Shown: piece by piece, positions 24,104 to 63,514 of the stretch
Layout of the letters: each line of letters begins with the position of its first letter
Numbering within the stretch: position 1 is the first letter of the stretch
Source: Minisyncoccota bacterium
GTDB taxonomy: Bacteria > Patescibacteriota > Minisyncoccia > Phycocordibacterales > JABAAK01
Length of the DNA: 64,000 bases
Reading direction: 5' to 3'
Assembly: GCA_958295675.1 (NCBI GenBank)
Contig: OY282360.1
Coordinates: forward strand, 466,026-530,025
Program-made: the position numbers and the translations under genes
The notes under the pieces: generated by a model
The model's input: the letters and a program-made list of their open reading frames with translations, nothing else
Databases searched by the model: none
Told to the model about the DNA's origin: nothing

Positions 24104-24128
24104 TGAACCATGCTATCTTACTCTTGGT

Positions 24129-25649: not shown

Positions 25650-25671
25650 ACCATGCTACCTTACTCTTGGT

Positions 25672-26532: not shown

Positions 26533-26554
26533 ACCATGCTACCTTACTTTTGGT

Positions 26555-27496: not shown

Positions 27497-27528
27497 ATTT
27501 TAGTGAACCATGCTACCTTACTCTTGGT

Positions 27529-28482: not shown

Positions 28483-28514
28483 ATTTTAGTGAACCATGCT
28501 ACCTTACTCTTGGT

Positions 28515-39849: not shown

Positions 39850-40004
39850 ATACCTTATAAAGAACATTAATAAACAGTCCGTGCCGCCCGCACTATCGTG
39901 TTAACCATAAAAAAATAGTACATCAAAAAATATAGCGCGAATTATTTTTTACACATAGCAAACGACATATATAAATATCGGAAACAATCTATATTGGAAA
40001 CAAT

Positions 40005-40580: not shown

Positions 40581-40696
40581 AGATTGTGAACAAAAGAATC
40601 AAGATCTACAGACATGACCACGACAACCGCGCGGAAAACATGACAGTCAACCCACATACATAAAAAAATACTTTGCCGTGTTATCATGCGGTGTGT

Positions 40697-45345: not shown

Positions 45346-45386
45346 AAAAGAAAAGGCGGGACAAGAAGTCACCGCCTTTTAACCGA
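45346..45386 (-). terminator. Rho-independent terminator (aaaaggcgggacaagaagtcaccgcctttt) for gene 45410..46171
   Basis: GC-rich hairpin with flanking A/T tracts. Confidence 0.55.
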
Positions 45387-45409
45387 GCGTTGCAGCACGA
45401 AGAAGCGTG

Positions 45410-46171: not shown

Positions 46172-46382
46172 AAGTGGAAATTTACGGGTACTCTAATTGC
46201 ACCCTAAAATAGTATACCAGTGCAGAATAAATATAACAACAGGAAATATAAAATAATAATTAGCGTAAAAAGCAAGAAAATACAATAAGTACCGAACAGT
46301 ATTATACACCGCTACCACAAAATACAAAAAAGAATCGCGGTGATTCCGAAGAATCACCGCGATGTAAGAAGAAAGGGAGTAA

Positions 46383-47381
46383 CTACTTGTTCCCACCAAT
46401 CCCCTTCTTAAGCGAGGATGCCATGTCCTCGCTCATGATGGAAGGAGCCGCCGGCGCCCTCTTACTCTGCTGCTTCCAGGAAAAACGGTAGAGTTTGTCC
46501 ATCGCCCGATTGAACAGACGATTTTGGCGATCGTTCAAGTCACAGGAATTCAAGAACTTTTTCAAACCCTCTACCTGCTTATCGACTTGCTTTGCAAAGT
46601 CCTCCTCGAGAGAGGTGGACTCATCGCCTTCAAAAGCCAACATGTTCAGAAGGTTTATCGCCTCCCAGGCAACAGAGGAACGATACTTGTTGATATTCCT
46701 TTTGTTAAGAAAACGCAATCTCTTCGAAACAATATCGAAGAATCTCTTGCTCCGGAAGAAGAAGGCGGTCTCGACGTTGAGAACGGAACGATTGGCATCG
46801 CCACTCTCTCTGTTAAGCAAATCAAGACCTTTCTCCGTATAGGAGATGATCTGGACCTCCCCTGTCGGCAGAAGAAGCGCGACAAAGGTGTTCGGACGAA
46901 ACTGCACCAACACCTCACCACTTCCCTGAGCGGGAACGAAAGCCGGTTTCCGGTCATCCAAATGAATGGTGCACGAACCCGTCCAAAAGGTATAACCGGC
47001 TTCCGAACGGAGATCAAACTTCACAAGCACCCGTTCATCATCACGGCCATCCGGTTTCGCAAGAAAATAGGAAGGTTTTTCACCCGCCTCGTTATTGCTT
47101 TCCACCAACGCGCGACGGCAGCGGACGAAGCCCGCCTTCTCATCCGTGTAGAGAGGACCCTTAAGCGGTCGAGGGATTGACCGCCCTCCCGCACGAAGCC
47201 ACAGTTGACCATCTTCTGGGGCATCCCACTCTAGCGAGACGCCCTCACTGATGACGAAGTCGCTGGTGTCGGAATTCCATGCTGCGGTGTATGCCGTTGC
47301 CGGCAGCTTGGCCTCCCTTTTCAGCAGTGTGCTGGCGGGGTTGACCGTGACAAGGTCGTCAACGGAAATCTTTATGGCCAT
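46383..47381 (-). CDS. Hypothetical protein (332 aa)
   Basis: Intact ORF. No motif was recognised. Confidence 0.4.
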   Translation of the reverse strand: MAIKISVDDLVTVNPASTLLKREAKLPATAYTAAWNSDTSDFVISEGVSLEWDAPEDGQLWLRAGGRSIPRPLKGPLYTDEKAGFVRCRRALVESNNEAGEKPSYFLAKPDGRDDERVLVKFDLRSEAGYTFWTGSCTIHLDDRKPAFVPAQGSGEVLVQFRPNTFVALLLPTGEVQIISYTEKGLDLLNRESGDANRSVLNVETAFFFRSKRFFDIVSKRLRFLNKRNINKYRSSVAWEAINLLNMLAFEGDESTSLEEDFAKQVDKQVEGLKKFLNSCDLNDRQNRLFNRAMDKLYRFSWKQQSKRAPAAPSIMSEDMASSLKKGIGGNK

Positions 47382-47533
47382 GAGCCATCCTCCTTTTACT
47401 GAAAAAGAAACAAATGCTTACCTCCACACTCTCGAGCGAAGATCAGCATCTTTTGAAAAAGAAAATGGAGAGATAGTAACTTCAATCTCACCATTATGTC
47501 CGTTATGTATTATACAGTAAAATAAATAAATAG

Positions 47534-47755
47534 TCAAATAAAAAACACCGGAGGTGAAACATCCCAACAATCAGCACGATTGGCACGATGCTTCACTTTC
47601 CGGCAATATTTGCTCCGATCCCGTTCGGTACGGGAACGGAACTGAGGATTCGTCACCAAATCTTTGGCAACCCAATTCCCTGCTTTGTGCGACTCAAGCT
47701 GCTTAAGCCGCCGACGCTGCCGTTTTGACAGCCCTTTTTTAGCAACCGTGCTCAT
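47534..47755 (-). CDS. Small basic hypothetical protein (73 aa)
   Basis: Lys/Arg-rich ORF. It may not be a real gene. Confidence 0.25.
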   Translation of the reverse strand: MSTVAKKGLSKRQRRRLKQLESHKAGNWVAKDLVTNPQFRSRTERDRSKYCRKVKHRANRADCWDVSPPVFFI

Positions 47756-47860
47756 GCTCTCCTCCGTTTCAGGTTTGCTACACTATATATAATAGCAAAA
47801 TATAGAATATTTGTCAAAATTTCAATAAAACACTTACAAAGAGGAGTATCTCCTATATAC

Positions 47861-47889
47861 TTGACAATTCAATAAAAATTGTGTATTAT
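47861..47889 (+). promoter_or_regulatory. Strong sigma70-type promoter TTGACA-17-TATTAT
   Basis: ttgaca attcaataaaaattgtg tattat. The transcription start site is predicted near 47896. Confidence 0.6.
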
Positions 47890-47895
47890 ATATAT

Positions 47896-48036
47896 GGGTG
47901 ACGGGCGGATGCGACTCTATACGATATTGGCTACAGTCCACCCTACCCCTTCGGGACTGCGCCCTCTCCGTCATCACCTTTATACTTATCAGGCACCCCC
48001 TGCGGTTCTCCGCAGGCGGTGCCTACCACTTTTTTA
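47896..48036 (+). ncRNA. Candidate ~140-nt small RNA (unknown family) between consensus promoter and intrinsic terminator
   Basis: 5' GGGUGACGG pairs with 3' CCGUCAUCACC. It has an internal CCC-UUCG-GGG hairpin and a terminal hairpin ggcaccccctgcgg/ccgcaggcggtgcc followed by UUUUUU. It has no coding potential. Confidence 0.45.
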
Positions 48037-48136
48037 ATACATACACTAAGGTTCTTAGTGCGTACTGATACTAACTATAATACACCCCACCTTTTTTAAC
48101 TTGTATAATTACTATTTTATTGGTATAGTATTTATT

Positions 48137-48589
48137 GGAGATGGGAAGTGTCCCATCAAGACCCCATCAGGTAGGGAAGGGATTGGTACTCTCTTCGTGA
48201 AGGTGCGTGGTACTTAGAGAAAGCGTTTAGTGTGGAAAGGGTGGATCGGCGGTGTAATTCCCCGAAAATTCCGAAATGTCCCTCATTCTTTAACAAGGAT
48301 TGAGGTTTGGGTAACTGTGATGGACGAGCATAAACCACTTACCAATGGTTTGTGCAAACTCTCGTCTATTGCAGCGCCGGACCTGCTGGCAGTGGGTGCT
48401 GTCCAAGCCTGCGTGAGCCTTCCGACGTATATATGCCAAGGTTTCTGCACGCTGGGAACGGCTGCCATTGCTACGGCCGCGCGCCACAAAACATTTCCAA
48501 ACACTGAAAAAGGTCGGTAACATCCCGAGTGCCTGCTTCCTGTCTCCACCCCACACACATGTACATGTGTGTGGGGTGCATTCTTTTTT
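48137..48589 (+). ncRNA. Candidate large structured RNA, copy 1 (~450 nt, unknown class)
   Basis: Promoter TTGTAT-17-TATAGT at 48101-48129. Conserved sequence blocks are shared with copy 2 (gggaagtgt, ggtgyaattcccc, caaggattgaggtt, ttccgacgyatayagccaaggwtt, aaacactgrmaaaaggtcggtamcatc). The overlapping ORFs of the two copies are not similar at the protein level. It ends in a hairpin terminator at 48549-48589. Confidence 0.4.
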
Positions 48590-48796
48590 ACTCTGTGTCA
48601 GGTACCAGTAGAACACCTGCGCACCATTTTCTCATATCCTTCTCATCTGTACCTAACCTGCGTGGGGTGATTTTTTGCTGGCTATCAATGCTCTATATAG
48701 GCGGTGCTTTTTCCCACTTTGTATGCATGTGACAAGTGCTTTGTTAGGTTTTGATATCATAAATATAGCAAGGGATACACCTCTATGGTATAAAAC

Positions 48797-48824
48797 TTGC
48801 GAAAAATTGATCGTTTGCTATAAT
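48797..48824 (+). promoter_or_regulatory. Sigma70-type promoter TTGCGA-16-TATAAT for RNA element copy 2
   Basis: ttgcga aaaattgatcgtttgc tataat. Confidence 0.55.
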
Positions 48825-48831
48825 ACCATGC

Positions 48832-49314
48832 AGAAGATGGGAAGTGTTGGTGTGTCACAAAAAACACAACGGATTCTCATCAAGCGGGGAAGAAAGTCAT
48901 TTTCTGCTTGTGAGAATATTCAGATACTCCCGATGCAGCGTTTCAGTGCGGATACGAGTGGACCGGTGGTGCAATTCCCCGGAAAGCTTGAAGTGTCCTC
49001 GTCCTTTTGCAAGGATTGAGGTTGGCTACCGCATAGACAAGCAACTCACACTGTACCGCAGTGGTTTAAAAAAAGTGCTTGTCTTTGTACGGTTCACGAA
49101 CCCCCTGGTTCTGGAAGCTAGAGCTCATCAGCGAGTAGTAAGTGGATTCTTCCGACGCATACACGCCAAGGATTCCGCTCGCCGAGTTGGCTAACCATTA
49201 CCAACGGTCGTGTACATAAAATCACTTCCGAAACACTGGCAAAAGGTCGGTACCATCGGATATCGAACCTTCCCATCTTCTTCTTACCCCACCTATGTGT
49301 GGGGTGATTTTTTT
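48832..49314 (+). ncRNA. Candidate large structured RNA, copy 2 (~480 nt, paralog of 48137-48589)
   Basis: Same conserved blocks in the same order as copy 1, with variable intervening segments. Terminator ccccacctatgtgtgggg+T7 at 49287-49314. Confidence 0.4.
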
Positions 49315-49435
49315 GCTGGCTATCAATGCTCTATATAGGCGGTGCTTTTTCCCACTTTGTATGCATTTGACAAGTACTTTGTTAGATGTTGCTATCATAA
49401 GTATGTCAAAGGATACATCCCTTTCCTATATATAC

Positions 49436-49464
49436 TTGCGAAAAGGTATGAAATATTGTAGTAT
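49436..49464 (+). promoter_or_regulatory. Sigma70-type promoter TTGCGA-17-TAGTAT for the small membrane protein gene
   Basis: It sits in a repeated module homologous to 48656-48830. Confidence 0.5.
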
Positions 49465-49524
49465 AGATATTAAAGGTAGCAGTAAGGTGCCTTTGTTCTG
49501 TTCATTGCAAAAAGGAAGCGATTG

Positions 49525-49851
49525 ATGTCAAGAAACACCGCAGATGTTGATAGGAATGAAGAAGGTTTTCTTTCCTCATTCCCGGAAAACATCTTTCTCT
49601 TTGCACCCTTCATGATCTTGGGCGCGGGTTTCGTTAGCATACTGGTGTTCAAAACACCTTTCATGCCGACAATGCTCACCAGCGTGACGATCTTGATCAT
49701 AACCGCCTGCACTTTTTTGTTTGAGATGGCTGCGCGGTCTGAGCATAACGATCTACCTGCGAAATGGATCCTTGTCGGACTACTACTTGCACTTGCCTCT
49801 TTTGGGACCTTAACGGGGCTGTCTTGGCAGCTGCACATCGGGTGCACATAA
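49525..49851 (+). CDS. Small membrane protein (108 aa, 3 predicted TM helices)
   Basis: RBS aggaag 7 nt upstream of ATG 49525, hydrophobic segments, and a terminator ccccttcctctgcggaagggg+T7 at 49871-49899. Confidence 0.5.
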   Translation: MSRNTADVDRNEEGFLSSFPENIFLFAPFMILGAGFVSILVFKTPFMPTMLTSVTILIITACTFLFEMAARSEHNDLPAKWILVGLLLALASFGTLTGLSWQLHIGCT

Positions 49852-50042
49852 TCGGAACAACCACCACAATCCCCTTCCTCTGCGGAAGGGGATTTTTTTA
49901 TAGTATCCGTGTGTTCTTTTGTACTGTAGATTTCCGGATATGTATCTTGTAGCATTTTTTGCTATGATAGTTCCGGCTTCCCATCTTCTCCTTACCCCCA
50001 CCTATGTGGGGTGATTTTTTTATCACATACCGGATAACACTA

Positions 50043-52691
50043 TCAGGATTTTTTCTTGAGAACTTTTTTTAAATACTGACCGGTATAACTGCCGGACTCT
50101 TTTGCCACAGATTCAGGAGTTCCCGCAACAACGATAGTGCCGCCGCGCTCACCGCCTTCCGGACCTATGTCCACAACATAATCCGCATTCTTAATCACAT
50201 CCAAATTGTGTTCAATCAGCAATACTGTATTACCGCGATCCACCAGACGGTTTAATATCTCTATGAGCCGACGAACATCTTCATAATGCAGACCGACGGT
50301 CGGTTCATCCAGCAGATACATAGTTTTTCTGGTATTCGGTCGGTACAGTTCGGAGGCAATTTTCACCCGCTGCGCTTCACCGCCGGAAAGTGTTGTGGAC
50401 GGCTGACCGAGTTCAAGGTAGCCGAGACCGACATCAACCAAAGTGCTCAGGCGATCATGAATTGTCGGTATGTGCTTAAAAAATTCCGCTGCCTCTTCGG
50501 TCGGCATCACGAGCACTTCATGAATATTTTTCCCGCGATAAGTGGTATCCAACACCTCCTTGCTGTATCGCTTGCCGTGACATTCATCGCAAATCACATA
50601 CACCGTCGGCAGGAAATGCATCTCAACGGCGATAGAGCCGTTCCCTTCGCACTTCTCACATCGTCCGCCGGGGACATTAAATGAAAATCGTCCTGATTTC
50701 CAACCGCGATACCGCGCGTCCTCAGTCGCGGCAAAAAGGTCGCGAATATGCGTAAACGCGCCGACATAGGTGACGGGCGTAGAACGCGGCGTGCGTCCTA
50801 TGGGCGATTGGTCAACCAGCACAACCCTGCTTAAATCAGTATATCCCTCAAACACCTTTGTATTAAAATTTCTCTTCACCGTCAGCCGCCGCTCAAGTTT
50901 GTGACGCAAATTTTTGTACACAATATCATACAGCAGCGTTGACTTCCCCGATCCGGAAACACCGGTAATCGCCACCAGCCGTCCGAGCGGAATGGTAACG
51001 CTCACATTATTAATATTATTCGCCGTCGCACCGCGCAGCGTCAGCTGACCCCGATTCTCAGTCCGCCGCCGCTCAGGAACGGCAATCAGCCGGTCTCCGC
51101 GCAGATACGAAAGTGTCAGCGATCCGGAAGAATTGCGCTTGCTCGTGAGCAGCGATTCAAGAAAACCGGAGACGACCACTTCCCCGCCATGTTTCCCCGC
51201 TGCCGGCCCTATATCAACGATATAGTCGGCCGCGAAGATGGTGTCCTCATCATGCTCAACAACAATGATGGTATTACCGAGATCACGCAGATGCAGCAGA
51301 GTCCGTATTAACCGGTCATTATCCCGTTGATGCAGACCGATGGTGGGTTCATCAAGCACATATAACGCACCGACCAAACCGGAACCGAGCTGTGAAGCGA
51401 GCCGTATCCGCTGCGCTTCACCGCCGGAGAGCGTATTTGCCTTACGGTTCAGGGTCATGTACTCAAGCCCGACATTCCTCAAAAAAGTGATGCGGCTGAT
51501 TATTTCATTCAGCAGCGGTTCCGCGATATCCTGCTGCTGCTTGTTAAGCGTTAATTCACCAAAAAAAGAAGCGGCATGCTCAACGGTTAATCCGATAATC
51601 TCATGTATGCTATGCTTTCTTTTTTTGCCGGTAATAAAGACATGAAGCGCTTCAGGACGGAGTCGCGCGCCGTGACAGGCACCGCATGGTTCATCATCAA
51701 ACACATCAACCTGCCCGAGACCGTTGCATTCAGGACACGCGCCGTACGGTGAATTGAACGAAAACAAACGCGGTTCAATTTCAGGAAAAGAAAAACCGCA
51801 GGCGGGACACAGAAAGCGGGACGAAATGAGGGATTCAGAGCCGTCCGGATAACCGAGACGCACAAGACCGTCCGCCTCATGAATGGATCGCTCAACGGCA
51901 TCCGACAGCCGTTCACGGAACACGCGCGGATCCTTGGCATAGTCGCTGATATACAGCGCATCAACATGTATATCAATATCATGTTTCTTGGTCTTGCTGA
52001 GTGTGAGACGATTCCGAAGAGCATGTTCAGCACCGTCAACACGCGCGGTTTCATACCCTTTCCGCAACATATCATAGAGCAGCTGGTAGTATTCCCCTTT
52101 TCGGCCGATGACAAGCGGCGCAAGCACACGGAGTATCCTCTCGTTATACGCAACCCCGGCAACCGAACTACTCTTCTCCAACCACTTCTCCCGCTTGATC
52201 TTCCGTTCAATCCGCCGCACAATCTCATCCTTAGAAACCTTCTCAATCACATGCGAACATGACGGACAAAACGGCGTGCCGACACGGGAAAAGAGTACCC
52301 GAAGATAGTCGTACACTTCAGTGATGGTCGCGACGGTTGAACGCGGATTGTTGGACCTATTCTTCTGATCAATAGAAATAGCGGGAGAAAGACCGGTAAC
52401 TTCCCGAATCTCCGGCTTCTGCATCTGCCGAAGAAACTGCCTGGCATACGCGGAAAGCGATTCAACATACCGTCGCTGCCCTTCAGCGAAGATGGTGTCA
52501 AACGCCAGCGATGACTTGCCGGATCCGGAGATACCGGTACATACCGTCAGCATATTGCGCGGAATATCAACATCAATGTTTTTCAGATTATGCGTTGACG
52601 CGCCGCGAATGCGAATCCATTTGCTGTCATGCGCCATTCCGCTCTTTTTCGCGCGCGCGCCGCTTTGTTTCTTTTTTCTTTTTTCCGGCAT
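50043..52691 (-). CDS. uvrA: Excinuclease ABC subunit A
   Basis: Two ABC modules ([14 protein letters not shown] and [14 protein letters not shown]), zinc-finger Cys clusters and the [12 protein letters not shown] signature twice. The start is set at the internal ATG (MPEKRKKK), since the ORF track N-terminal extension is Cys/hydrophobic read-through. Confidence 0.95.
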
Positions 52692-52695
52692 ACTA

Positions 52696-54480
52696 TCAGC
52701 TCCGTTCTTCTGAAGAAGAAAACACGGCATCTTTTTGCACAAGCATCCGCACTGCATCATCAACAGAAAGCACCTGTTTCCTATCATCCATCTCCAAAGT
52801 AACAGCACCTGCATCGCGCTCTTTTTCACCGATCACAATCCGAGCAGGTATTTTTTCAGCATGTGTTTTCGCCACTTTCCTGCCGACACTCTCATCACTC
52901 ATATCACAATCAACCCGAAGACCGGCACCGACAAGACGGTCAGACACAGTACGCGCGTATGCATGCGCACTCTCACCGACTGACAGCACCCGCACCTGCA
53001 CCGGCGCGAGGAAAAACGGAAAATAGCCGGCGAAGTGTTCAATCATCACGCCCAAGAAACGCTCCAGAGAACCGGACACGGCGCGATGTATCATTATCGG
53101 CACCTGCTTCCTGTTGCCGGAGTCAACATAGGAAAGATTAAAACGCTCCGGCATCACAAAATCAAGCTGTATGGTCGCCAACTGCCACTTCCTGCGCAGC
53201 GAGTCCCGAAAGTGAAAATCAATTTTCGGTCCGTAAAACGCCGCTTCCCCCGCTTCAATGACAAACGGCAAACCAGCGCGCTCAAGCGCGCTTGTAAGGT
53301 ATCGTTCAGCATTGTCCCACACGGCATTGTCACCGAGATAGCTGTCCGTATCACTGCCGCGCACCGAAAGAAACACTTCACAATCATCACCGCGGAAAAA
53401 ACCGAGTGCGGTGTAGAATTCCTTGATAAGTGAAATGGTCGCGGAAACTTCCTCCTCAATCTGCTCTTCCGTGCAGAAAATATGCCCGTCATCCTGCGTA
53501 ATACTCAGCACCCGTGTCAGACCGAGCAATTCGCCCTTCTGTTCATCCCGATAGTTGGTCGTGAATTCCGCGTATCGGATAGGAAGATCGTTATAGCTCC
53601 GCAGCGCGCTCGCGTATATCTGCGTGTGGTGCGGGCAGTTCATCGGTTTCAGCACAAATTCGTCATGCCTGCCGCGCACGGTGAGCAGTTCATCGCCGAA
53701 TTTATCCCAATGCCCCGATGTCTCGTACAATTCTTTCTTCGCCAGATGCGGTATCCATACATGCTCATAGCCGTACCTTTCCAACAGCACAGACAAAGAT
53801 TTTTCCAATGCCCTGCGAAGCGCGTTCCCTTTCGGCGTGAACAGCGGCAATCCGGAGCCGACTAACGGCGAAAAAGTAAACAACCCTAATGCTTTCCCTA
53901 TCTTCCGATGATCCCGCGCCTTTGCTTCTTCAAGCATTCGCTGATACTCATTAAGGTCTTCCTTGGTGTCAAACGCAAGACCGTACACACGCGTCAGCAT
54001 AGTATTTTGCTCATCACCGCGCCAGTACGCGCCGGCAACGGATTGCAGCGCGAAACTGTCAGGATGTATGGAAGAAATATCGTCAACATGACCGCCGCCG
54101 CATAAGTCAATAAAATCACCGGAAGTATATAATGTAATCTCTTTTCCGGCGACAGAAAGTTCGTCAATCAACTCACACTTGTACGGATTATCCTTAAAAT
54201 ACGCAAGTGCCTCCTCTGATGAAACAACCTTTTTTTCAAAAACAGTCCATTGCCCGAGCATCTCCCGCATTTTTTCCTCAACGGCACCCAAATCATCAAC
54301 AGAAAGCGGAACAGGAATTTCAGCATCATAGTAGAAACCGTCATCAATGGCGGGACCGATGGCAAGCTTAGTACCGGGATACAAAGCAACCAGTGCCGCG
54401 CCGAGCGCGTGCGCCAAAGAGTGCCGTTTCTCCTGCAATACATCTGCGGTCTCAGAACTCATACCTTGGTAGAATAACAC
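52696..54480 (-). CDS. thrS: Threonyl-tRNA synthetase (N-terminally reduced, 594 aa)
   Basis: Editing-domain motif [10 protein letters not shown]...[11 protein letters not shown], catalytic-core motif [12 protein letters not shown]...[23 protein letters not shown] and a C-terminal anticodon-binding domain. There is no TGS domain. Confidence 0.9.
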
Positions 54481-54510
54481 AATGAAAAAGCAGCAAACAA
54501 TCAGATATCA

Positions 54511-54978
54511 TCACCGCGAAAAACCGGAATCATGCTCAAAGGGACCGCGGGACGATGCCATAACGGCAAGCCGATCCGCCTTTTCATTCCCTTCTTCATT
54601 TGAATGCCCTTTCACCCACTTGAAAACCACATGTTCCTTCACCAACACATCAAGTTCTTTCCACAAATCAACATTCTTGATTGGTTGTTTCCTGCCGCGT
54701 TCAAGACGCATCCATCCGTTCTCTTTCCAACCGCGCATCCACTGCGTAATTCCTTTCCGCACATACTCGCTGTCAGTCCAGATAGTGATAGTATCAACGG
54801 CACCATATTTTTTCAGCACTTCAATCACCGCGCGCAGCTCCATCCTGTTATTCGTTGTTCTGTAGTACCCCTGAGAAAAAGTGTATTCTAAAGCACCGTC
54901 CCGATACACCACCGCACCGATACCGCCAGGACCCGGATTTCCTTTACATGACCCATCCGTGTATACCTCATATTCCAT
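54511..54978 (-). CDS. rnhA: Ribonuclease HI
   Basis: YTDGSCKGNPGPGG, ...TNNRMELRAVIEVL, ...WTDSEYV... and the KGHSNEEGNEKADRLA motifs. Confidence 0.85.
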   Translation of the reverse strand: MEYEVYTDGSCKGNPGPGGIGAVVYRDGALEYTFSQGYYRTTNNRMELRAVIEVLKKYGAVDTITIWTDSEYVRKGITQWMRGWKENGWMRLERGRKQPIKNVDLWKELDVLVKEHVVFKWVKGHSNEEGNEKADRLAVMASSRGPFEHDSGFSR

Positions 54979-55062
54979 ACAGCACAATGTAGCACAGCAG
55001 TATATCACTTTATCCACCATACTAAAAATATCTCCTCACCCCTACCTTAAACTATAAGTATA

Positions 55063-58000
55063 ATGCACATTACCCACAAAATCCTGCAAGTTGCACTTGC
55101 CATAAGTATACTCAGCATGCTGTTCGTGTCATACGGCATGACAGACGCACAGACCGCGTGCGCGGACGGAGAAGTACTCACCCTCGCCAGTACGGGTCTG
55201 GAGTGTGTTTCCGCGGAGCAGGCATTGCTGGAATCCAATAACTGTCCCGAAGGACAGTTTCTGCAGGTGACCACGGTCAACGGCGTCAGACAGGTTACCT
55301 GTGCCAGTGTTCCGACAGTGGACCCCCCAAAAGAATGCGGCACGGGAGAGTATGTCCGCGGTGTCAACAATGACGGGTCGCTGGACTGTGCGACCATTCA
55401 GACCGTCCCTTCCTGTGCAGTGTCGGTCTCACCCGCATCGCCGACAACAGCACAGTCGTTCACCTTAACGGTGACACCACGGAACTTCTCTGCTGCCGGT
55501 AACTATACCTACCGCTGGAAGTTTGACACGCAGAGCAGAATACTGCGTGAGGAAACGACCGCAATGACCTCAGATACCCTGTCCATTAACGCAGGAGACA
55601 TCGCCAACCCGTACAACTCACCGTACTATGTGACGGTGACGAAAAGCACACAAAGTACCTCATGCGGTATCGTGGTGCCGGTGGTTGCTGCTACCGTTCC
55701 ATCCTGCTCCGGCGGAAGTGTCAGCTGGACTGTGAACAACAAGACCTGCACCGGTTCCCTAGACGAGACAAAATCCGGTAGCAGCGATACTGCAATTGAT
55801 AGCAACAGACCGCCCACCGGCAGCGCGACCTATCACTGTAATAATGACAGGACATGGGGAGAACCAACGAGCGCATCATGTGCAGACGATCCTCCCCACT
55901 GCCAAGAAGACGATGAGGTCACCTGGACAGTAGGCAGTCACACCTGCACCGGTTCCCGAGACGAGACAAACTCCGGTAGCAGCGATACTGCAACTGATAG
56001 CACCGGACCGTCAACCGGTAGCGCGACCTATAGCTGCAACAACGGTGCCTGGACCGAACCGACTAACACAAGTTGCGAATCTACAACTCTTCCTCCTCTC
56101 AAGTGTTCAGGCGGTAGTGTTGATTGGAGCGTGGACAATCACGACTGCACCGGTTCCCGAGACGAGACAAACTCCGGTAGCAGCGATACTGCAACTGATA
56201 GCACCGGACCGTCAACCGGTAGCGCGACCTATAGCTGTAACAACGGCGACTGGATCGCAACTAGCATGAGTTGCGGATATGGAGATCCACCCTGTAATTG
56301 CACCCCGTCCGCAACCGACAGCACAACCGCCGGTACCCGTGCCACACCTCATACATGGTGCAAGAGATCCTGCGCCGGTCGTACTGTCAGATGGACCGTG
56401 AACGGCAAGACCTGTTCGGGCTCCTTGCCAGAAGTAACTCCTGAAGCCGATATAGGTGAAAATCCAACCACCGTGTGGGACACGACTGGAACGACACGCG
56501 GCAGAGCCATTTACGACTGCAATGATGGTACCTTGAGCAACCCGCTGTTCGCGTGGTGCACAAGTGCGACGACATCCTGCGCCGCTGATACAGTCAGCTG
56601 GACCAAGAACGGCAGGACTTGCACAGCGTCCCGACCTATGGCACCTTCCGGCGGAGAGGTCTTCATACGGAGTACCGAAGGAACATCACGCGGCAGTGCG
56701 AAGTACCTCTGTACCAATGGCACCTGGAGCGACGAGCCATCTTTCGCATTGTGCGACAGAACATGTGCCGGTGGTACGGTCAATTGGACAGTAGGCAGTC
56801 ACACCTGCACCGGCACCCGAACCACAACACGACATGGTGGCGGCAGCGTCGCGAGGGATGCCACCAAACCAACAATCGGTGTCGCCGCCTACAGATGTGT
56901 TAATGGTACCTGGAGAACCATGTTTAGTAGATACGATGCTTCTTGGATTTTCTGGAGACATTGGAGTGACAATATGCATGACTCAATATGGTTAAGCGGA
57001 ACCGGTGCGACTTGCTCATCCACATCCTGTCCCGCCGATATAGTCACATGGAGTGAAGACAACAACAGAATTTGCAGATTTTCCCGCTCAATTACACCTT
57101 CCGGTGCATACGCTAATCTATTGGACACTGATGGATCAACGGGTGGTGGCGGATTTTACAAATGTAACGACAATGGCTCATGGGATGATGCTGACAGCAC
57201 GAATGCCTGCACCACGAGTGGGTGTCTGCAAGACGGCGTATGCGATACCAGCAGGCAGAACAGGTGCTCGTCCGGCACGCTCTACAATGATGCCAATGAC
57301 TCCGCGGTGGCTGACACGACCACGCACTACAAATGGCGCTGCGACGGACGGAATGGCGGAAAAAACTCTCCTGTCTGCGAAAAGGAAAAACCGTGCGGCA
57401 CCTGCAACTGCACTACATCAAAAACAGACGCTACGAACGCCGGTACTTGCAGTACCACCGGCAATACCTGCACCGTCTCGGCAAATAACTGTCCGAAGAG
57501 CCCTAAATGCGGTTCCTGGTCACCGGCACGAAACACGGTCTGTAGCGGCACGAGATTCACCCAGTTCAGAACCTGCAACACTGAGTGTAATAACTGTGCA
57601 ACAAGTCGGTTGACGACCGGGACAAAACCCCAAAGTGGGACATGGTCACCGGCACGAAACACGGTCTGTAGCGGCAAGAGATTCACCCAGTCCAGAACCT
57701 GCGGTTCACGATCAACGACCGGCACGAAACCGGCGACAAATTGTCAATGGGGACCTTGGAGTGATTGGAGTACATGTTCAAATGGCTCCCAAAGCAGATC
57801 AAGAAGTAAAACCGTAACCGAGTCAACCTGCGGCACCTGCTCAGGTTCAAGCACCCAATCACAGTGTTGTGGTAGTGGATGCACTCCTGTTCCTTGTGTC
57901 TGCACCGCATCAAAAACCGATGCCGCGAACAAAGGCACCTTGTCTGACGGCAGCGGTGCCTGCACCGTCACGGCGAATAACTGTCCGACAAAAACCTGCA

Positions 58001-60489
58001 ACTGCACTACATCAAAAACCGATGCTACGAACGCCGGCACCTGGTCTGACGGCAGCGGTGCCTGCAACGAGGCGAATAATTGTCCACAAACACCTGTATG
58101 CAACAATGCTGAAGTAGATGAATGCTTAGTCGGGCGCAAATCAAACACCGGCACGAGATGTCAAGATACCACTACGCTTGACCGTTGGTGTTGCATAGGA
58201 AAGCCCGACACTGAGATAGCGTATTGTGACATAAAGAAACCGGGATGTGAGGATAAAGATGTAACTTGGGGAACTCAATGTGGTGGAAGCACAGGAACAG
58301 CAAGTGCAAGCGGAAGTAAGGTAGTCGCCAATACTAAAGCTGGCTACACCGGCAGCGCGACCTACAGTTGTAACAACGAAACATGGAGTGGTCCGACCGC
58401 TTCGAGTTGTAGAGAGAATTTGTGTGAATGGAGTACCTGGTCACCGGCGGCGAATACAAAAACCTGCGGCACATCATTCACGCAAGAGAGAACCTGCGGT
58501 TCTGGAGATGAAACCAAACAGGAAACCCAAACCGCGACCGGTACCAAACCCAGTGCTTGGAGCACCTACGCACCGGCAACGAGCACGGTCTGCAGCGACG
58601 AATCATTCACGCAAGAGAGAACCAGAACCTGCGGTGACCCCACAAGCGAAGAGAGAACCGCGAGAGGGACGGCAACCTGGAGTACCTGGTCACCGGCGGC
58701 GAATACAAAAACCTGCGGCACATCATTCACGCAAGAGAGAACCTGCGGTTCTGGAGATGAAACCAAACAGGAAACCCAAACCGCGACCGGTACCAAACCC
58801 AGTGCTTGGAGCACCTACGCACCGGCAACGAGCACGGTCTGCAGCGACGAATCATTCACGCAAGAGAGAACCAGAACCTGCGGTGACCCCACAAGCGAAG
58901 AGAGAACCGCGAGAGGGACGGCAACCTGGAGTACCTGGTCACCGGCGGCGAATACAAAAACCTGCGGCACATCATTCACGCAAGAGAGAACCTGCGGTTC
59001 TGGAGATGAAACCAAACAGGAAACCCAAACCGCGACCGGTACCAAACCCAGTGCTTGGAGCACCTACGCACCGGCAACGAGCACGGTCTGCAGCGACGAA
59101 TCATTCACGCAAGAGAGAACCAGAACCTGCGGTGACCCCACAAGCGAAGAGAGAACCGCGAGAGGGACGGCAACCTGGAGTACCTGGTCACCGGCGGCGA
59201 ATACAAAAACCTGCGGCACATCATTCACGCAAGAGAGAACCTGCGGTTCTGGAGATGAAACCAAACAGGAAACCCAAACCGCGACCGGTACCAAACCCAG
59301 TGCTTGGAGCACCTACGCACCGGCAACGAGCACGGTCTGCAGCGACGAATCATTCACGCAAGAGAGAACCAGAACCTGCGGTGACCCCACAAGCGAAGAG
59401 AGAACCGCGAGAGGGACGGCAACCTGGAGTACCTGGTCACCGGCGGCGAATACAAAAACCTGCGGCACATCATTCACGCAAGAGAGAACCTGCGGTTCTG
59501 GAGATGAAACCAAACAGGAAACCCAAACCGCGACCGGTACCAAACCCAGTGCTTGGAGCACCTACGCACCGGCAACGAGCACGGTCTGCAGCGACGAATC
59601 ATTCACGCAAGAGAGAACCAGAACCTGCGGTGACCCCACAAGCGAAGAGAGAACCGCGAGAGGGACGGCAACCTGGAGTACCTGGTCACCGGCGGCGAAT
59701 ACAAAAACCTGCGGCACATCATTCACGCAAGAGAGAACCTGCGGTTCTGGAGATGAAACCAAACAGGAAACCCAAACCGCGACCGGTACCAAACCCAGTG
59801 CTTGGAGCACCTACGCACCGGCAACGAGCACGGTCTGCAGCGACGAATCATTCACGCAAGAGAGAACCAGAACCTGCGGTGACCCCACAAGCGAAGAGAG
59901 AACCGCGAGAGGGACGGCAACCTGGAGTACCTGGTCACCGGCGGCGAATACAAAAACCTGCGGCACATCATTCACGCAAACGAGAACCTGCGGTTCTGGA
60001 GATGAAACCAAACAGGAAACCCAAACCGCGACCGGTACCAAACCAAGAGACGGCGGATGGAGTACCTATGGTTCTTGCGAATGTACCTCCAGCACTTTTG
60101 ATGCGGCGAACGCCGGTACACAGAGCAGAACCTGCAACAACCCGGTACGGGGGTGCTCCGGCAGCGCATGCTCCGGCAGCGCATCCCAATCCTGTACCGT
60201 CTCGGCGAATAATTGTCTAGAAAGAAACGGTCAGTGTGGTGGTGACCCTACAATAAGCGGCGACGCATTCACTGGATACTATGTTCTTAATAAGCATAGG
60301 AATTCACTCTGTAAATATGGGACATCTTATGGTTTTAGATCATTACGAGAAAGCGACCAAGGAGGTACTCAACATCCAAATCCTAATCTTAGATTCTACA
60401 AAGCAGTTTGGAAATGCGCTGAAAGCAGCAATGATGTTTCTGTTTCTGTTGCCAGTTGTTCCAAAACATTTTTTGTGCCGGGCTCCTAG
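55063..60489 (+). CDS. Giant secreted Cys-rich protein (1808 aa) with thrombospondin-type-1-like (WSxWS...C...RTC) repeats
   Basis: Signal peptide MHITHKILQVALAISILSMLFVSYGMTDAQTA. The N-terminal half holds repeated ~50-aa Cys modules (C.GGSV.WTV....CTGSRDETNSGSSDTATDS.GPSTGSATYSCNNG.W). The middle carries GSWSPARNTVCSGTRFTQFRTC and CQWGPWSDWSTCSNGSQSRSRSKTVTESTCGTC (TSR-like). The C-terminal half is 6.5 identical 83-aa repeats WSTWSPAANTKTCGTSFTQERTCGSG...WSTYAPATSTVCSDESFTQERTRTCGD. Confidence 0.8.
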   Translation: MHITHKILQVALAISILSMLFVSYGMTDAQTACADGEVLTLASTGLECVSAEQALLESNNCPEGQFLQVTTVNGVRQVTCASVPTVDPPKECGTGEYVRGVNNDGSLDCATIQTVPSCAVSVSPASPTTAQSFTLTVTPRNFSAAGNYTYRWKFDTQSRILREETTAMTSDTLSINAGDIANPYNSPYYVTVTKSTQSTSCGIVVPVVAATVPSCSGGSVSWTVNNKTCTGSLDETKSGSSDTAIDSNRPPTGSATYHCNNDRTWGEPTSASCADDPPHCQEDDEVTWTVGSHTCTGSRDETNSGSSDTATDSTGPSTGSATYSCNNGAWTEPTNTSCESTTLPPLKCSGGSVDWSVDNHDCTGSRDETNSGSSDTATDSTGPSTGSATYSCNNGDWIATSMSCGYGDPPCNCTPSATDSTTAGTRATPHTWCKRSCAGRTVRWTVNGKTCSGSLPEVTPEADIGENPTTVWDTTGTTRGRAIYDCNDGTLSNPLFAWCTSATTSCAADTVSWTKNGRTCTASRPMAPSGGEVFIRSTEGTSRGSAKYLCTNGTWSDEPSFALCDRTCAGGTVNWTVGSHTCTGTRTTTRHGGGSVARDATKPTIGVAAYRCVNGTWRTMFSRYDASWIFWRHWSDNMHDSIWLSGTGATCSSTSCPADIVTWSEDNNRICRFSRSITPSGAYANLLDTDGSTGGGGFYKCNDNGSWDDADSTNACTTSGCLQDGVCDTSRQNRCSSGTLYNDANDSAVADTTTHYKWRCDGRNGGKNSPVCEKEKPCGTCNCTTSKTDATNAGTCSTTGNTCTVSANNCPKSPKCGSWSPARNTVCSGTRFTQFRTCNTECNNCATSRLTTGTKPQSGTWSPARNTVCSGKRFTQSRTCGSRSTTGTKPATNCQWGPWSDWSTCSNGSQSRSRSKTVTESTCGTCSGSSTQSQCCGSGCTPVPCVCTASKTDAANKGTLSDGSGACTVTANNCPTKTCNCTTSKTDATNAGTWSDGSGACNEANNCPQTPVCNNAEVDECLVGRKSNTGTRCQDTTTLDRWCCIGKPDTEIAYCDIKKPGCEDKDVTWGTQCGGSTGTASASGSKVVANTKAGYTGSATYSCNNETWSGPTASSCRENLCEWSTWSPAANTKTCGTSFTQERTCGSGDETKQETQTATGTKPSAWSTYAPATSTVCSDESFTQERTRTCGDPTSEERTARGTATWSTWSPAANTKTCGTSFTQERTCGSGDETKQETQTATGTKPSAWSTYAPATSTVCSDESFTQERTRTCGDPTSEERTARGTATWSTWSPAANTKTCGTSFTQERTCGSGDETKQETQTATGTKPSAWSTYAPATSTVCSDESFTQERTRTCGDPTSEERTARGTATWSTWSPAANTKTCGTSFTQERTCGSGDETKQETQTATGTKPSAWSTYAPATSTVCSDESFTQERTRTCGDPTSEERTARGTATWSTWSPAANTKTCGTSFTQERTCGSGDETKQETQTATGTKPSAWSTYAPATSTVCSDESFTQERTRTCGDPTSEERTARGTATWSTWSPAANTKTCGTSFTQERTCGSGDETKQETQTATGTKPSAWSTYAPATSTVCSDESFTQERTRTCGDPTSEERTARGTATWSTWSPAANTKTCGTSFTQTRTCGSGDETKQETQTATGTKPRDGGWSTYGSCECTSSTFDAANAGTQSRTCNNPVRGCSGSACSGSASQSCTVSANNCLERNGQCGGDPTISGDAFTGYYVLNKHRNSLCKYGTSYGFRSLRESDQGGTQHPNPNLRFYKAVWKCAESSNDVSVSVASCSKTFFVPGS
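58432..60050 (+). repeat. Perfect 249-bp tandem repeat x ~6.5 inside the giant TSR-like gene
   Basis: Antisense ORFs at 58566, 58815, 59064, 59313 and 59562 are 100% identical 249-nt units. The last unit has one substitution (Q->T). Confidence 0.9.
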
Positions 60490-60574
60490 GATTAGCAACG
60501 CTGTATATAAGAGCAAATAAAAAAACCCCCGCGGATAACCGCGGGGGTAGTGCCTTGTAGGCGAAAAAAAGAGG

Positions 60575-63148
60575 TTACCGATCAACGACCGGCAGCATCG
60601 CCGCAGCGCAGCGGAAGTCAACGAGTCCCTGACCGAATTCACGGTCAACCCCGGGCTCCCCGATATCCGTCGCGCACGACTTCAGGGCGTGCACCACATC
60701 CTCCGCATCCTCGTAGGTCTGGAAGAGGTGGAACACCGCCGCGCTGAGTGCCGGTGCCGATGCCGAGGTAATCCTCGACTGCTCCACCGCGAAGCACTGC
60801 TCCCTGGTGTCGCCGCACATCATGACACCGGTATCCGGCACGACCGTGCCGTCCTGTCTGCGCACCGCCGCGGTCGCCATCAGCACCTTACCGGTCCTGA
60901 CCGCGTCCATCGTTGCGGTATACATCCACCGCCGACCGCCATCATCACAGGTGAAGTACGAATGGTCAGGACGCCACAGGTCCCGATCCGGATTGTCCGG
61001 CGGATCGCACTGATTCACGCTATGGTGGTTCACATTACCGGCACTCGCCACAAATATGATATTGTGCGCAGCAATGTGCTCCGCAGCAAGCCTGTTGAAG
61101 GCGGGCAGTACCGACCGGTTCACCACCAGGGTCTCGGCGCGCAGAGCGGCGTTGTCCGGGTGGGTCAGGAAGCCGTACGCACCGTCCACTACGCGCCAGT
61201 CCGTTATCCCCGGACCGTGCACATGGATGTTCGCTTTCGGCACGCCCTCTTCTTTCATGTTCACATACACCGTCCGCTGGGCATGGCTGCCCTCAAACGC
61301 TTCACCATCAGCCAACTCCGAGATCACCAGTTTGTAGCGGTGTTCGTCATCGTCAGTGATACGACCGATGAGGTCGCGCATGCCGGCGAAGGACAGGGTG
61401 TTGGTTACCGTGATCGGCTCGGTGTGCGTGGCTTCCGCGCCGTAGCGGTCGGTAACGGTCAGGGTGACCGGGTAGGTCGTTGTGGCGGGGTAGCGACCCT
61501 CGTAGCCGTGGCGAGCGCCCCGGGTACGCCCGAAGAACCAGGTACTGTCGTAGACAAACAGGGGGGTCGGACCGGTGCCGGTCGTGGTGTCAACCCGCAG
61601 ACTGTTCTCCCCGAAGTCCCAGGCGTAGTCCGTGAGGTCTCCTTTGGACGCGGTGGCGTCAAAGCGGATGCCGAACGGGATGCCGTCGTCCTCCTCGTAG
61701 GTGAACGATGCTTCCACAGGTCTGGCGATGACCCGAATGCCTGCCGGTGTGTAGGAGAGGTTGGTGAGGTGCCCGGTTGTTGTCTGTATGAGGGACAGCA
61801 GGATGACGGGATTGGTCGCGGTGACCATGAGCCGCCACTTACCGCTGCCGTCGCCGAGTCCCAGATCTTCCAGCCGTTTGGCGGTGAAGGTTTTCACTTC
61901 ATTGCCCCGCAGGGTGATGCGGACTGTACTGTCGCCTTCTCTGCCTCTATCGTCAAAGCCGCGGACGGTGACCGTGGTCACGGCACCCGTGGTGTTGACG
62001 ATTCGCAAACTGCTCTCCCGATCGGTATTGCTGCCCGGGTTGAGTATGGGTACCTGGTGCGTCCGTCCCGCATCACCCACGATATCGTGGAGTGCGGTGA
62101 GAAAACCGTCATCGGTGCGCATGTAGGCGAGTACCTGTAGGTCCAGATCGCCGGAGACCGTCAGCCGCCAGTGACCGGTACCGTCGCCGACACCGGTGAT
62201 ACCTTTGGCGACACTGCCGTTTTCCAGATCATTGGAGTTGAAGTGCCGCACCTGATTGGCGCCGATGGGGATGGTGAACGAGCCCCGTTCGGTGCCCGAG
62301 TCATCCCTGGCGCGTACCGTCACGGTGCCCGCTTCCGGTGAGCGGTTGATGATCCGCGCGAAACTCTGCCTGAACCGCGAGACCGCGGTGAACAGCGGAA
62401 TCGTGGTGCCTTCCGGTGCCGATGAGAGGTTCGTGAGGTAGCCGACCTTGGTGCTCATGAGGGACATGACGACAATGGATTCCGGTGCCGTGACGAGCAA
62501 TCGCCACTTACCGCTTCCGTTGCCGAGTCCTCCGTTCTCCAGGTCTTTCGCGCTCAGGGTACGTGCACCGTTGGGGCGGAGGGATACCGTCACGGGACGG
62601 TCTCCCGCTGCACCCTGATCGTCAGTACCCCGCACGGTTACCGTGATAGTCCGCCCCGACCGATTGATCAGCCGGAGCATACTCTCCTGGTTCACGTTTG
62701 AGGCGGGATTGAAGGTCATGACCCGGTAGACCCCGTCAGGGCCTCGTGCCACGGTGTTGTTCATCGCGGTGAGAAAGCCGTCATCGGTACGCAGGTACGC
62801 GGTGACCGCAATCGGCAGCGCACTGTCCAGTGCGAGCTGCCAGTCACCGGTGCCGTTGCCGATACCGGTGATACCTTTCACGGCATTGCCGTTCTCCAGG
62901 TCGTCTGAGTTGAAGTGGTACACCGCGGATGCAGCGATGCGGAACGAACTCCGGTGCAGGACACCGGCATCGTCACGGGCACGGATTGTGACCGTACCGT
63001 CTCGGTGTGCGAGATTCACGACTCGCGTGAATCCCTGCCGAATACCGTCATTCGCGGGAGCGAACAGCGGTACCGTCTGTGTTTCGCCGACTGCGAATGT
63101 CGCGGTCAGCAGGAAAACAGGCAGGATGCCTGCTGCTCGTCTGTGCAT
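60575..63148 (-). CDS. Secreted modular protein (857 aa): duplicated ~215-aa beta-rich modules + PKD-like domain + C-terminal subtilase-like (degenerate) domain. Markedly GC-rich.
   Basis: Signal peptide MHRRAAGILPVFLLTATFAVG. Two copies of a module each contain two sub-repeats (GTVTIRARDD.G...F.I.A..V.HFNSDDLENG...KGITG.G.GTG.W). PKD-like motif FTYEEDDG...FDATASKGDLTDYAWDFGE. The C-terminus has FVASAGN and TSASAPALSAAV, reminiscent of S8 oxyanion/Ser motifs, but clear Asp/His motifs were not found. Confidence 0.65.
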   Translation of the reverse strand: MHRRAAGILPVFLLTATFAVGETQTVPLFAPANDGIRQGFTRVVNLAHRDGTVTIRARDDAGVLHRSSFRIAASAVYHFNSDDLENGNAVKGITGIGNGTGDWQLALDSALPIAVTAYLRTDDGFLTAMNNTVARGPDGVYRVMTFNPASNVNQESMLRLINRSGRTITVTVRGTDDQGAAGDRPVTVSLRPNGARTLSAKDLENGGLGNGSGKWRLLVTAPESIVVMSLMSTKVGYLTNLSSAPEGTTIPLFTAVSRFRQSFARIINRSPEAGTVTVRARDDSGTERGSFTIPIGANQVRHFNSNDLENGSVAKGITGVGDGTGHWRLTVSGDLDLQVLAYMRTDDGFLTALHDIVGDAGRTHQVPILNPGSNTDRESSLRIVNTTGAVTTVTVRGFDDRGREGDSTVRITLRGNEVKTFTAKRLEDLGLGDGSGKWRLMVTATNPVILLSLIQTTTGHLTNLSYTPAGIRVIARPVEASFTYEEDDGIPFGIRFDATASKGDLTDYAWDFGENSLRVDTTTGTGPTPLFVYDSTWFFGRTRGARHGYEGRYPATTTYPVTLTVTDRYGAEATHTEPITVTNTLSFAGMRDLIGRITDDDEHRYKLVISELADGEAFEGSHAQRTVYVNMKEEGVPKANIHVHGPGITDWRVVDGAYGFLTHPDNAALRAETLVVNRSVLPAFNRLAAEHIAAHNIIFVASAGNVNHHSVNQCDPPDNPDRDLWRPDHSYFTCDDGGRRWMYTATMDAVRTGKVLMATAAVRRQDGTVVPDTGVMMCGDTREQCFAVEQSRITSASAPALSAAVFHLFQTYEDAEDVVHALKSCATDIGEPGVDREFGQGLVDFRCAAAMLPVVDR

Positions 63149-63360
63149 GAGAAACGTCCTCGTTGTGTGTGGAAAGAACAGGGTTCTGGCGGGTAGTGTA
63201 GCATATTTTGCTGGTTTATGCTGTGGCAGATACTGTACAGCGTCTCCTATGTTAATGAATGTATGTTTTGAAACATCTTTGACTTTTTCTTTTTCTTTTT
63301 TTTTATTTTTTTAATTGATAATCAGTATCGCGGTATCCCGCGATGTATACTACGGGGTAA

Positions 63361-63431
63361 CGGACTGTAGCATAATGGTAGTGTGCACGCATGGGGTGCG
63401 TGTGGTTCGGGTTCGATTCCCGGCAGTCCGA
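63361..63431 (+). tRNA. tRNA-Pro (anticodon GGG)
   Basis: Manual fold: acceptor CGGACUG/CAGUCCG, D-arm GCAU-AAUGGUA-GUGU, anticodon stem CACGC/GCGUG with loop AUGGGGU (anticodon GGG), T-arm UCGGG-UUCGAUU-CCCGG and discriminator A. CCA is not encoded. Confidence 0.65.
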
Positions 63432-63514
63432 CTCTGTGTAGCATCATATAGTGGAAAGCAATGTCTTTCTATAGCTCCGCACCATGCTGAATCATGTTTT
63501 GTATCACGCTGCTA

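Follow-up and report, generated by a model that had tools for sequence, protein, structure and literature searches.

Introduction

Gene acquisition by horizontal transfer is already known in Patescibacteria, the candidate phyla radiation (CPR) (PMC12455944), and ComEC together with type IV pili is the route by which CPR bacteria are thought to take up DNA of their hosts (PMC8080830). In the present study, we analyzed a stretch of 64,000 nucleotides (nt) from a Minisyncoccota bacterium (GenBank assembly GCA_958295675.1, contig OY282360.1, positions 466,026 to 530,025; the whole stretch is referred to as the window). At 60575-63148 on its minus strand lies a GC-rich gene for a predicted secreted modular protein of 857 amino acids (aa), which we propose to be a recent acquisition from a Pseudomonadales lineage. 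As in the cases described before (Gios et al. 2025, PMC12455944; Vampirococcus lugosii, PMC8080830), a foreign gene would lie in a streamlined chromosome, and uptake by ComEC and type IV pili is plausible. Unlike in those cases, the proposed donor lineage is identified at 96-99% identity across phyla, three copies are found in a genome of 0.72 Mb, the homology coincides exactly with the coding sequence (CDS), and there is no genomic-island machinery or prophage nearby. Horizontal transfer into Patescibacteria is known as such; what is unusual is a near-identical donor across phyla, the three copies, the CDS-exact homology and an uncharacterised protein.

The protein itself can be compared with several described systems. 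Like the subtilases (MEROPS clan SB, family S8; subtilisin BPN', Plasmodium SUB1, the lanthipeptide protease 4zoq and SubA (2iy9)), its C-terminal domain has an alpha/beta fold with the order acid-His-Asn-Ser, an 'AGN' after a beta-strand, a 'TS-A' at the N-terminus of a helix and a C-terminal 'FG-G-vD'. Unlike the subtilases, it has Glu611 in place of Asp, six conserved Cys, and no I9 propeptide that could be detected. The acid and the His are about 32 residues apart in subtilisin; in the window domain the spacing is shorter, 11 residues. As in the secreted proteases that bear PKD domains (ColG/ColH, Vibrio PrtV and Epp), a PKD domain stands next to a protease domain, but here it precedes the catalytic domain, its loops are hypervariable, and the protease is a subtilase and not a metalloprotease. 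In polymorphic families of secreted effectors or toxins, a conserved N-terminal region is joined to a variable C-terminal region. The paralogues of the window protein are likewise N-terminally conserved and C-terminally mosaic, and their N-terminal module is shared with many enzyme domains; unlike in polymorphic toxins, no immunity or partner gene is conserved beside the copies, and no toxin or trafficking domain is recognised.

For almost all Patescibacteria the host is unknown, and no host has been established for those that live in animals such as sponges. Some Patescibacteria are on record with hosts among the Gammaproteobacteria (bioRxiv 10.1101/2024.03.08.584096). A multi-copy gene at 96-99% nucleotide identity with one Pseudomonadales lineage may name a concrete candidate host.

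A GC-rich gene in a Patescibacteria chromosome

The window carries the core chromosomal genes rpoC, rpoB, a DNA polymerase III subunit, Dus, SerRS, UvrB, UvrC, UvrA, ThrRS and RNase H, together with many open reading frames (ORFs) without a Pfam family. Its ThrRS finds a 100% match on a contig of 724,510 bp, where the 857-aa protein in identical form (P0242) and its 1808-aa neighbour (P0381) are encoded as well, and the named relatives of this ThrRS (55-69% identity) are all Kaiserbacteria, Paceibacteria or Patescibacteria. A related CPR genome (L017; circular, 641,294 bp; ThrRS 73% identical) is syntenic with the window across Spond_N, Mur ligase, FemAB, UvrC, UvrA, ThrRS and RNase H. Judged by its core genes, the ThrRS relatives and the synteny with L017, the window is therefore part of a small CPR chromosome.

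Within this chromosome the 857-aa gene stands apart. Its GC content is 0.620 and its GC at third codon positions (GC3) 0.747, compared with 0.465±0.029 and 0.454±0.043 in the 34 other window genes, the highest GC3 among which is 0.540 (z=5.4 for GC and z=6.9 for GC3 of the 857-aa gene). When GC was followed in 100-nt segments, it stepped from 0.33-0.50 to 0.56-0.70 at both ends of the CDS. Synonymous codon usage of the gene correlated with that of Pseudomonadales neighbour genes at r=0.82 and with that of window genes at r=0.33. A 483-aa ORF on the opposite strand has a GC by codon position of 0.76/0.48/0.61, which mirrors the sense frame, and it is therefore an antisense shadow ORF.

The closest relatives are in Pseudomonadales

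Relatives of the full protein were searched in 5.8 billion proteins, and the full-length family was placed via species-representative genomes. Full-length relatives are graded from 45 to 97% identity, and more than 2000 further proteins share the N-terminal module only. The full-length family sits in two chromosomes of 'uncultured Pseudomonadales', OY282460.1 (4.33 Mb) and OY282447.1 (5.07 Mb), each of which has six or more copies, and a 20-kb stretch often holds two to four of them. The ten family loci that were fetched are metabolically rich, typical proteobacterial DNA, with a GC of 64-66% in the eight that were measured (gene GC of 0.60-0.68 in locus L015), and the GC3 of the family in Pseudomonadales loci, 0.72-0.76, equals that of the window copy. 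Over the whole CDS the window copy is 96-97% nucleotide-identical to five copies (on OY282460.1 and ERZ19489113 contigs). Its identity profile is mosaic, with 200-nt stretches that are 100% identical to different copies.

An earlier note on this DNA had called the gene far richer in GC than the window average, had proposed it as a candidate horizontal acquisition, and had taken the 483-aa antisense ORF as spurious. All three statements agree with the present results. GC and codon usage depart from the average of the chromosome, and the relationships are not vertical: the nearest relatives are in Pseudomonadales, while the housekeeping genes of the window are Patescibacteria-like. Codon usage, these relationships and the empty syntenic site described below all support acquisition.

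Among the Pseudomonadales paralogues, the first 470 residues are about 99% identical and the PKD and protease part is 80-95% identical. The differences are discrete patches in the loops of the PKD domain and in the surface loops of the protease, and distant paralogues differ by about equal counts of nonsynonymous and synonymous codons. The diversification of the donor family thus far looks cassette-type, as of a secreted effector. No conserved partner gene was found beside the copies, and the ORFs of about 188 aa that precede the OY282447.1 copies are mutually unrelated.

The more distant carriers of the N-terminal module are metagenome-assembled genomes (MAGs) of Gammaproteobacteria with the isolate names RHO1, COS4 and SB06xx. 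These names would fit a published sponge metagenome series, in which Rhopaloeides, Coscinoderma and Ircinia were sampled and nine Patescibacteria MAGs were recovered as well (Robbins et al., PMC8163846). The high-GC Pseudomonadales source lineage is probably sponge-associated. A search of JGI metagenomes returned a single match, at 42% and to the N-terminal module only.

The insertion site

Comparison with L017 placed the gene in an 8.35-kb insertion between RNase H and tRNA-Pro. The features of the site are as follows.

54980 to 63334: insertion relative to L017, 8.35 kb, between RNase H and tRNA-Pro (tblastx/blastn synteny)
55063 to 60489, plus strand: neighbouring island gene for a 1808-aa Cys-rich secreted protein, with 6.5 copies of a 249-nt repeat at 58429-60044
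60525 to 60548, no strand: bidirectional intrinsic terminator, a perfect 10-bp GC hairpin flanked by an A-run and a T-run
60575 to 63148, minus strand: CDS of the 857-aa secreted modular protein, stop TAA at 60575-60577 and ATG at 63146-63148 (ORF listing)
60689 to 62140, plus strand: 483-aa antisense shadow ORF, not a gene (ORF listing)
63157 to 63161, minus strand: GAGGA ribosome-binding site, 8 nt upstream of the ATG in AT-rich sequence of recipient type
63361 to 63432, plus strand: tRNA-Pro(GGG), right border of the island (ARAGORN; Rfam 57.9 bits; 88% identical to the L017 tRNA-Pro)

Positions 50056-54979 of the window align with 14355-9494 of L017, and positions 63335-63432 with 9466-9367. 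The tRNA-Pro(GGG) of L017 is 28 bp from RNase H, which in the window is at 54511-55020. The insertion holds two convergent genes, the 1808-aa repeat-protein gene and the GC-rich 857-aa gene, which have the terminator at 60525-60548 in common. The 186 bp upstream of the 857-aa gene have a GC of 36.6% and no match in the donor loci. Both flanks of the gene are CPR-type, and the window contains no undetermined bases (Ns).

The sole hallmark of mobility is the adjacency to tRNA-Pro, on the 5' side of the tRNA. Inverted repeats were not found at the island borders, and the flanks are not repeated elsewhere in the window or in the donor loci. A phage vector was considered and rejected, as no viral relative was found in IMG/VR contigs. 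An Rfam search of the window flanks for regulatory RNA returned the tRNA only.

Taken together, the results are best explained by a recent horizontal acquisition of the 857-aa gene by a CPR bacterium from a high-GC Pseudomonadales lineage, to which we give a probability of about 0.78.

Boundaries of the homology and the three CPR copies

Between the window copy and the donors, homology sets in at the ATG and does not extend past the last sense codon (60577-63149). Upstream of the Pseudomonadales copies there is a conserved GC-rich leader of about 115 nt (L001 9885-10012, L003 and L004), which is without a match in Rfam and might be a promoter or 5' untranslated region that they share. The leader is present in all four donor copies whose flanks were examined, and an 'MSQP' extension in three of the four; the window copy has neither, and it stops with TAA where the donors have TGA. 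Such CDS-exact homology, the missing leader and the TAA stop are not predicted by a simple insertion of a fragment.

The two ends of the CDS differ in their match to the donors. At the 5' end, the window copy agrees with two donor copies at 60/60 positions, whereas in its last 33 nt it agrees with each of the sampled donor copies at no more than 25-27 of 33 positions, compared with 97-98% in the 300 nt before them. Amelioration of the 3' tail was considered and rejected, since the eight differences show no AT-ward bias.

The contig of 724,510 bp has three family copies: the window copy (P0242), P0244 and P0003. All three have the tail CAAAMLPVVDR, with Ala849, and an MHRR start, while residue 849 is Glu in 16/16 other copies (three on OY282460.1, the rest on untyped metagenome contigs). 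That Ala849 is shared by the three CPR copies and absent from the 16 others argues strongly against misassembly. In its PKD and protease region P0003 is 99% identical to P0241 of OY282460.1 and 82% identical to the window copy, the best matches of which in this region are P0249, P0254 and P0001 on untyped contigs. This points either to several imports, after which the tail was homogenised within the genome, or to resident copies with interiors replaced by recombination with incoming DNA.

Domains of the 857-aa protein

Starting from the N-terminus, the gene encodes the following parts, all on the minus strand.

63086 to 63148: Sec-type signal peptide, residues 1-21 (MHRRAAGILPVFLLTATFAVG), read from the sequence by eye
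62414 to 63085: module 1, residues 22-245, beta-sandwich repeats R1 and R2 (comparison of module 1 with module 2; AlphaFold model)
61745 to 62413: module 2, residues 246-468, beta-sandwich repeats R3 and R4 (same comparison; AlphaFold model)
61400 to 61744: PKD domain, residues 469-583, with the YAWDFGE motif (Pfam PKD_4, Foldseek)
60578 to 61399: compact subtilisin-fold domain, residues 584-857 (Foldseek, column conservation, hhalign)
61316 to 61318, 61283 to 61285 and 60764 to 60766: codons of the putative catalytic residues E611, H622 and S795, respectively
61034 to 61036: codon of the putative oxyanion residue N705

The predicted signal peptide, MHRRAAGILPVFLLTATFAVG followed by ETQ, has a basic n-region, a hydrophobic core and an A-V-G cleavage-type site, with no lipobox Cys. 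Residues 22-245 and 246-468 are 51% identical (E=1e-69), and each of these modules is made of two related units of about 110 aa in the order ABAB, with pairwise E from 1e-10 to 1e-39. An AlphaFold2 model of residues 22-468, with a predicted local distance difference test (pLDDT) of 95.5, is all-beta and has four beta-sandwiches, each with a short helix at 'DLENG'. Its structural neighbours in the PDB are generic macroglobulin-type arrays only, at a template modelling (TM) score of about 0.15. In other proteins, the module is joined to M12 reprolysin, trypsin, S8, a phospholipase-C C-terminal domain, PSCyt3 and further domains, and its position within the carrier proteins varies; it therefore behaves as a shared accessory unit, which probably has a role in binding or presentation. 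Several distant carriers of the module match the beta-sandwich repeat family DUF5719 (PF18986) at E of 1e-8 to 6e-12 and 26-46 bits, and both are of unassigned function. The window protein itself has no match to DUF5719 at E<=1, and no literature was found on DUF5719 or on the accession numbers.

The PKD domain matched Pfam PKD_4 at E=4.5e-4 with a score of 20.7, below the cutoff of 27. Foldseek matched it to the PKD domains of ColG, PrtV and Epp with a probability of 1.00, and close homologues carry precomputed matches to PF18911/PF00801. Sequence searches with the whole protein gave weak PKD matches only in the PDB and nothing meaningful in NCBIfam.

An AlphaFold2 model of residues 469-857 had a pLDDT of 76 and a predicted TM score (pTM) of 0.78. 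When this model was compared with the PDB by Foldseek, ranks 1-25 were all subtilases (E from 2.8e-6 to 4.5e-4, probability 1.00), including PvSUB1, subtilisin BPN', a lanthipeptide protease and SubA. When 1.84 billion cluster representatives were scanned in full by HMMER with the 274-aa domain, only 130 relatives were found, and conservation was taken from an alignment of 51 of them. The acid position 611 is Asp in 40/51 and Glu in 10/51, among them the window protein; H622, N705 and S795 are each present in 50/51, and T794 in 44/51. Six Cys are conserved (714, 734, 778, 785, 825 and 847), of which Cys778, Cys825 and Cys847 are invariant and Cys785 is present in 50/51. DSSP placed the acid at the end of strand 1, the His at the start of a helix, the Asn after the 'AGN' strand and the Ser at the start of a helix, which are the places expected from subtilisin. 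In the hhalign comparison with subtilisin BPN', FVASAGN paired with VVAAAGN and ITSASAP with GTSMASP. 'VHGPG' was considered as the motif of the catalytic His and rejected, as its His is not conserved.

A profile search of the PDB picked up S8 enzymes at the Ser region. The Pfam S8 match is limited to residues 794-841, and the whole protein scored 18.5 bits against a gathering score of 21.8 for PF00082. The isolated domain reached 22.3 bits, at profile positions 238-288 only, and 8/51 relatives match at E<=1e-3. From the alignment and the model, the C-terminal domain is probably a compact, divergent and active subtilase with a putative Glu-His-Ser triad.

From the letters of the gene, the earlier note had read a signal peptide, a duplicated module of about 215 aa built of two sub-repeats of about 100 aa, a PKD-like domain (YAWDFGE) and subtilase-like FVASAGN and TSASAP motifs, and each of these was recovered here. 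Its suggestion of 'a possible pseudo-protease or divergent S8' stands in the second part; the first part does not fit with the conservation of D/E611, H622, N705 and S795 in the family.

Origin and activity of the gene

We infer the direction and route of the transfer, and the secretion, catalysis and biological role of the product, as follows. In the Pseudomonadales source lineage the family would be native, multi-copy and diversifying. A CPR cell would take up DNA from a neighbouring, possibly host, cell, and the CDS would end up in the divergent promoter region that separates RNase H from tRNA-Pro. There the acquired CDS would be under an AT-rich leader of recipient type, with its own GAGGA ribosome-binding site and terminator. 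The product may be exported by Sec. The four beta-sandwich repeats and the PKD domain are probably a spacer or binding array, and the disulfide-stabilised domain would probably cleave extracellular or surface proteins via Glu611-His622-Ser795, with Asn705 in the oxyanion hole.

Several observations weigh against this account. The gene in the CPR chromosome is known here from assembled sequence, and the CPR and Pseudomonadales genomes are presumed to co-occur in the same sample. The exact coincidence of the homology with the CDS, the lack of the donor leader and the different stop codon have been described above. Beside the gene, no integrase, transposase, direct repeat or duplicated tRNA fragment was found (best local match 9 nt). 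For the proposed protease, hhalign left the Asp/His region unaligned to subtilisin, the pLDDT of the model is only 76, and Glu stands in the triad where S8 enzymes have Asp.

It is possible, although we think it rather doubtful, that the CPR copies are long-resident and that their interiors have been overwritten by homologous recombination with DNA of a Pseudomonadales partner in repeated imports. Such a history would account for CDS-exact boundaries between AT-rich, unique flanks, for the low match of the last 33 nt, for the mosaic identity with 100% stretches to different copies, and for an Ala849 tail that the CPR copies share, yet with interiors that follow different paralogues. However, there is no diverged anchor at the 5' end, where the first 60 nt match two donor copies exactly; the tail may stem from a donor paralogue outside the sample, or from conversion within the genome once independent transfers had taken place; and the idea was weighed on the DNA of the window copy alone among the three CPR copies. 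An extension of this idea, which is speculative and in our view unlikely, is that the three CPR copies are kept near the hypervariable alleles of one Pseudomonadales lineage by repeated uptake and recombination. Such cross-phylum concerted evolution would mark that bacterium as the physical host of the CPR epibiont, probably inside a sponge, and if it were true, the epibiont would copy its host's variable repertoire of secreted proteases and adhesins. The sharp, CDS-exact boundaries also look unnatural enough to suggest that Pseudomonadales reads were built into the CPR contig, as the sequence comes from a metagenome assembly and the gene is a multi-copy repeat of abundant co-assembled genomes. 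An artefact of assembly or binning would need two chimeric junctions back to the same CPR locus, at three places of the contig. It would also have to explain a copy that is identical to no Pseudomonadales copy, a private A849 and an MHRR start common to three CPR copies, a TAA stop against TGA in the four donor copies examined, and a ribosome-binding site and terminator of recipient type in a window free of Ns. We therefore consider an artefact very improbable.

Even less credible is that the gene is native to CPR, or moved from CPR to Pseudomonadales, and owes its GC to amino-acid composition or to a local mutation bias. The window does have other GC-rich genes (the LRV-repeat genes at 10470-12053 with 0.59 and the 1808-aa gene with 0.545), but the excess in the 857-aa gene is in GC3 (0.747) and not in the positions determined by amino acids. 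The syntenic site of the related CPR genome is without the gene, the other sampled members of the family are in loci of 64-65% GC that are rich in metabolic genes, and more than 2000 proteins from MAGs of Gammaproteobacteria contain the module. As to the activity of the product, the many adhesin-like beta-sandwich and PKD domains would suit a protein that serves purely in adhesion or binding, with a subtilisin fold that is catalytically dead. Glu in place of the canonical Asp, the absence of canonical HGTH and DTG/DSG motifs, the restriction of the Pfam S8 match to the C-terminal 50 positions and the unconserved His of 'VHGPG' point in the same direction. Nevertheless, D/E611 (40 D, 10 E), H622, N705 and S795 are kept in 50/51 relatives, compared with a mean column identity of 13% in a full-length alignment that includes the divergent flanking domains, which indicates selection on an active site. 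Moreover, P0028, an apparently decayed paralogue, is alone in the full-length alignment in losing E611, H622 and S795 together. A dead fold thus appears unlikely to us, and an active, divergent subtilase acquired from Pseudomonadales is the reading that we prefer.

If the acquisition is as proposed, three copies of a 2.6-kb foreign gene kept in a streamlined genome of 0.72 Mb would imply a strong benefit. The protein defines a rare, uncharacterised branch of the subtilase clan with a putative Glu/Asp-His-Ser triad of very short spacing, and its beta-sandwich module is widespread, unstudied and common to many enzymes of symbionts. The CDS-exact homology raises the question of how foreign genes get installed in CPR genomes.

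Neighbouring gene and other features of the window

The repeats of the 1808-aa gene are 249 nt (83 aa) long and 99% identical, and have WSTWSPA...C..FTQERTC motifs which, by sequence, resemble thrombospondin type-1 repeats (TSRs). The protein has no Pfam match at 1e-3 and only 12 homologues in the 5.8 billion proteins, including a 97% paralogue (P0382) on the 724,510-bp contig. With a GC of 0.545 and a codon correlation of about 0.5 with both the window and the Pseudomonadales gene sets, the gene is, in its composition, not Pseudomonadales-like. The product of 40673-41572 (plus strand) is homologous to an L017 protein (18278-19222) with Spondin_N (PF06468), an extracellular-matrix domain of eukaryote type that is here found in CPR genomes, and is in keeping with the TSR-like repeats that the 1808-aa protein carries.

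Between UvrC and UvrA, at 45357-50021, the window has another insertion of its own, about 4.7 kb long, where L017 has a 58-aa ORF only. None of the ORFs of this insertion (253, 332 and 161 aa) has a Pfam family, the ORF at 46383-47381 has a GC3 of 0.62, and 2 kb at 47.4-49.5 kb are without a long ORF. At 8426-12931 on the minus strand, four adjacent or overlapping ORFs consist of LRV/HEAT repeats (PF01816, up to 218 bits) in the second GC peak of the window, with a local GC of up to 0.62; the overlaps suggest a large repeat gene with frameshifts or a gene cluster. Seven consecutive ORFs of 270-506 aa at 21996-29327 (plus strand) have no Pfam match at 1e-5 and a strongly positive GC skew, and form an uncharacterised operon. 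In RpoB (4918-8148, minus strand), residues 578-660, which lie within domain 6 or beside it, give a weak match of Peptidase_M23 type (E=5.7e-6), probably a lineage-specific insertion or a chance match. An 810-aa protein encoded at 37435-39867 (minus strand) has two matches to the Lamin Tail Domain (PF00932) and is probably a surface protein.

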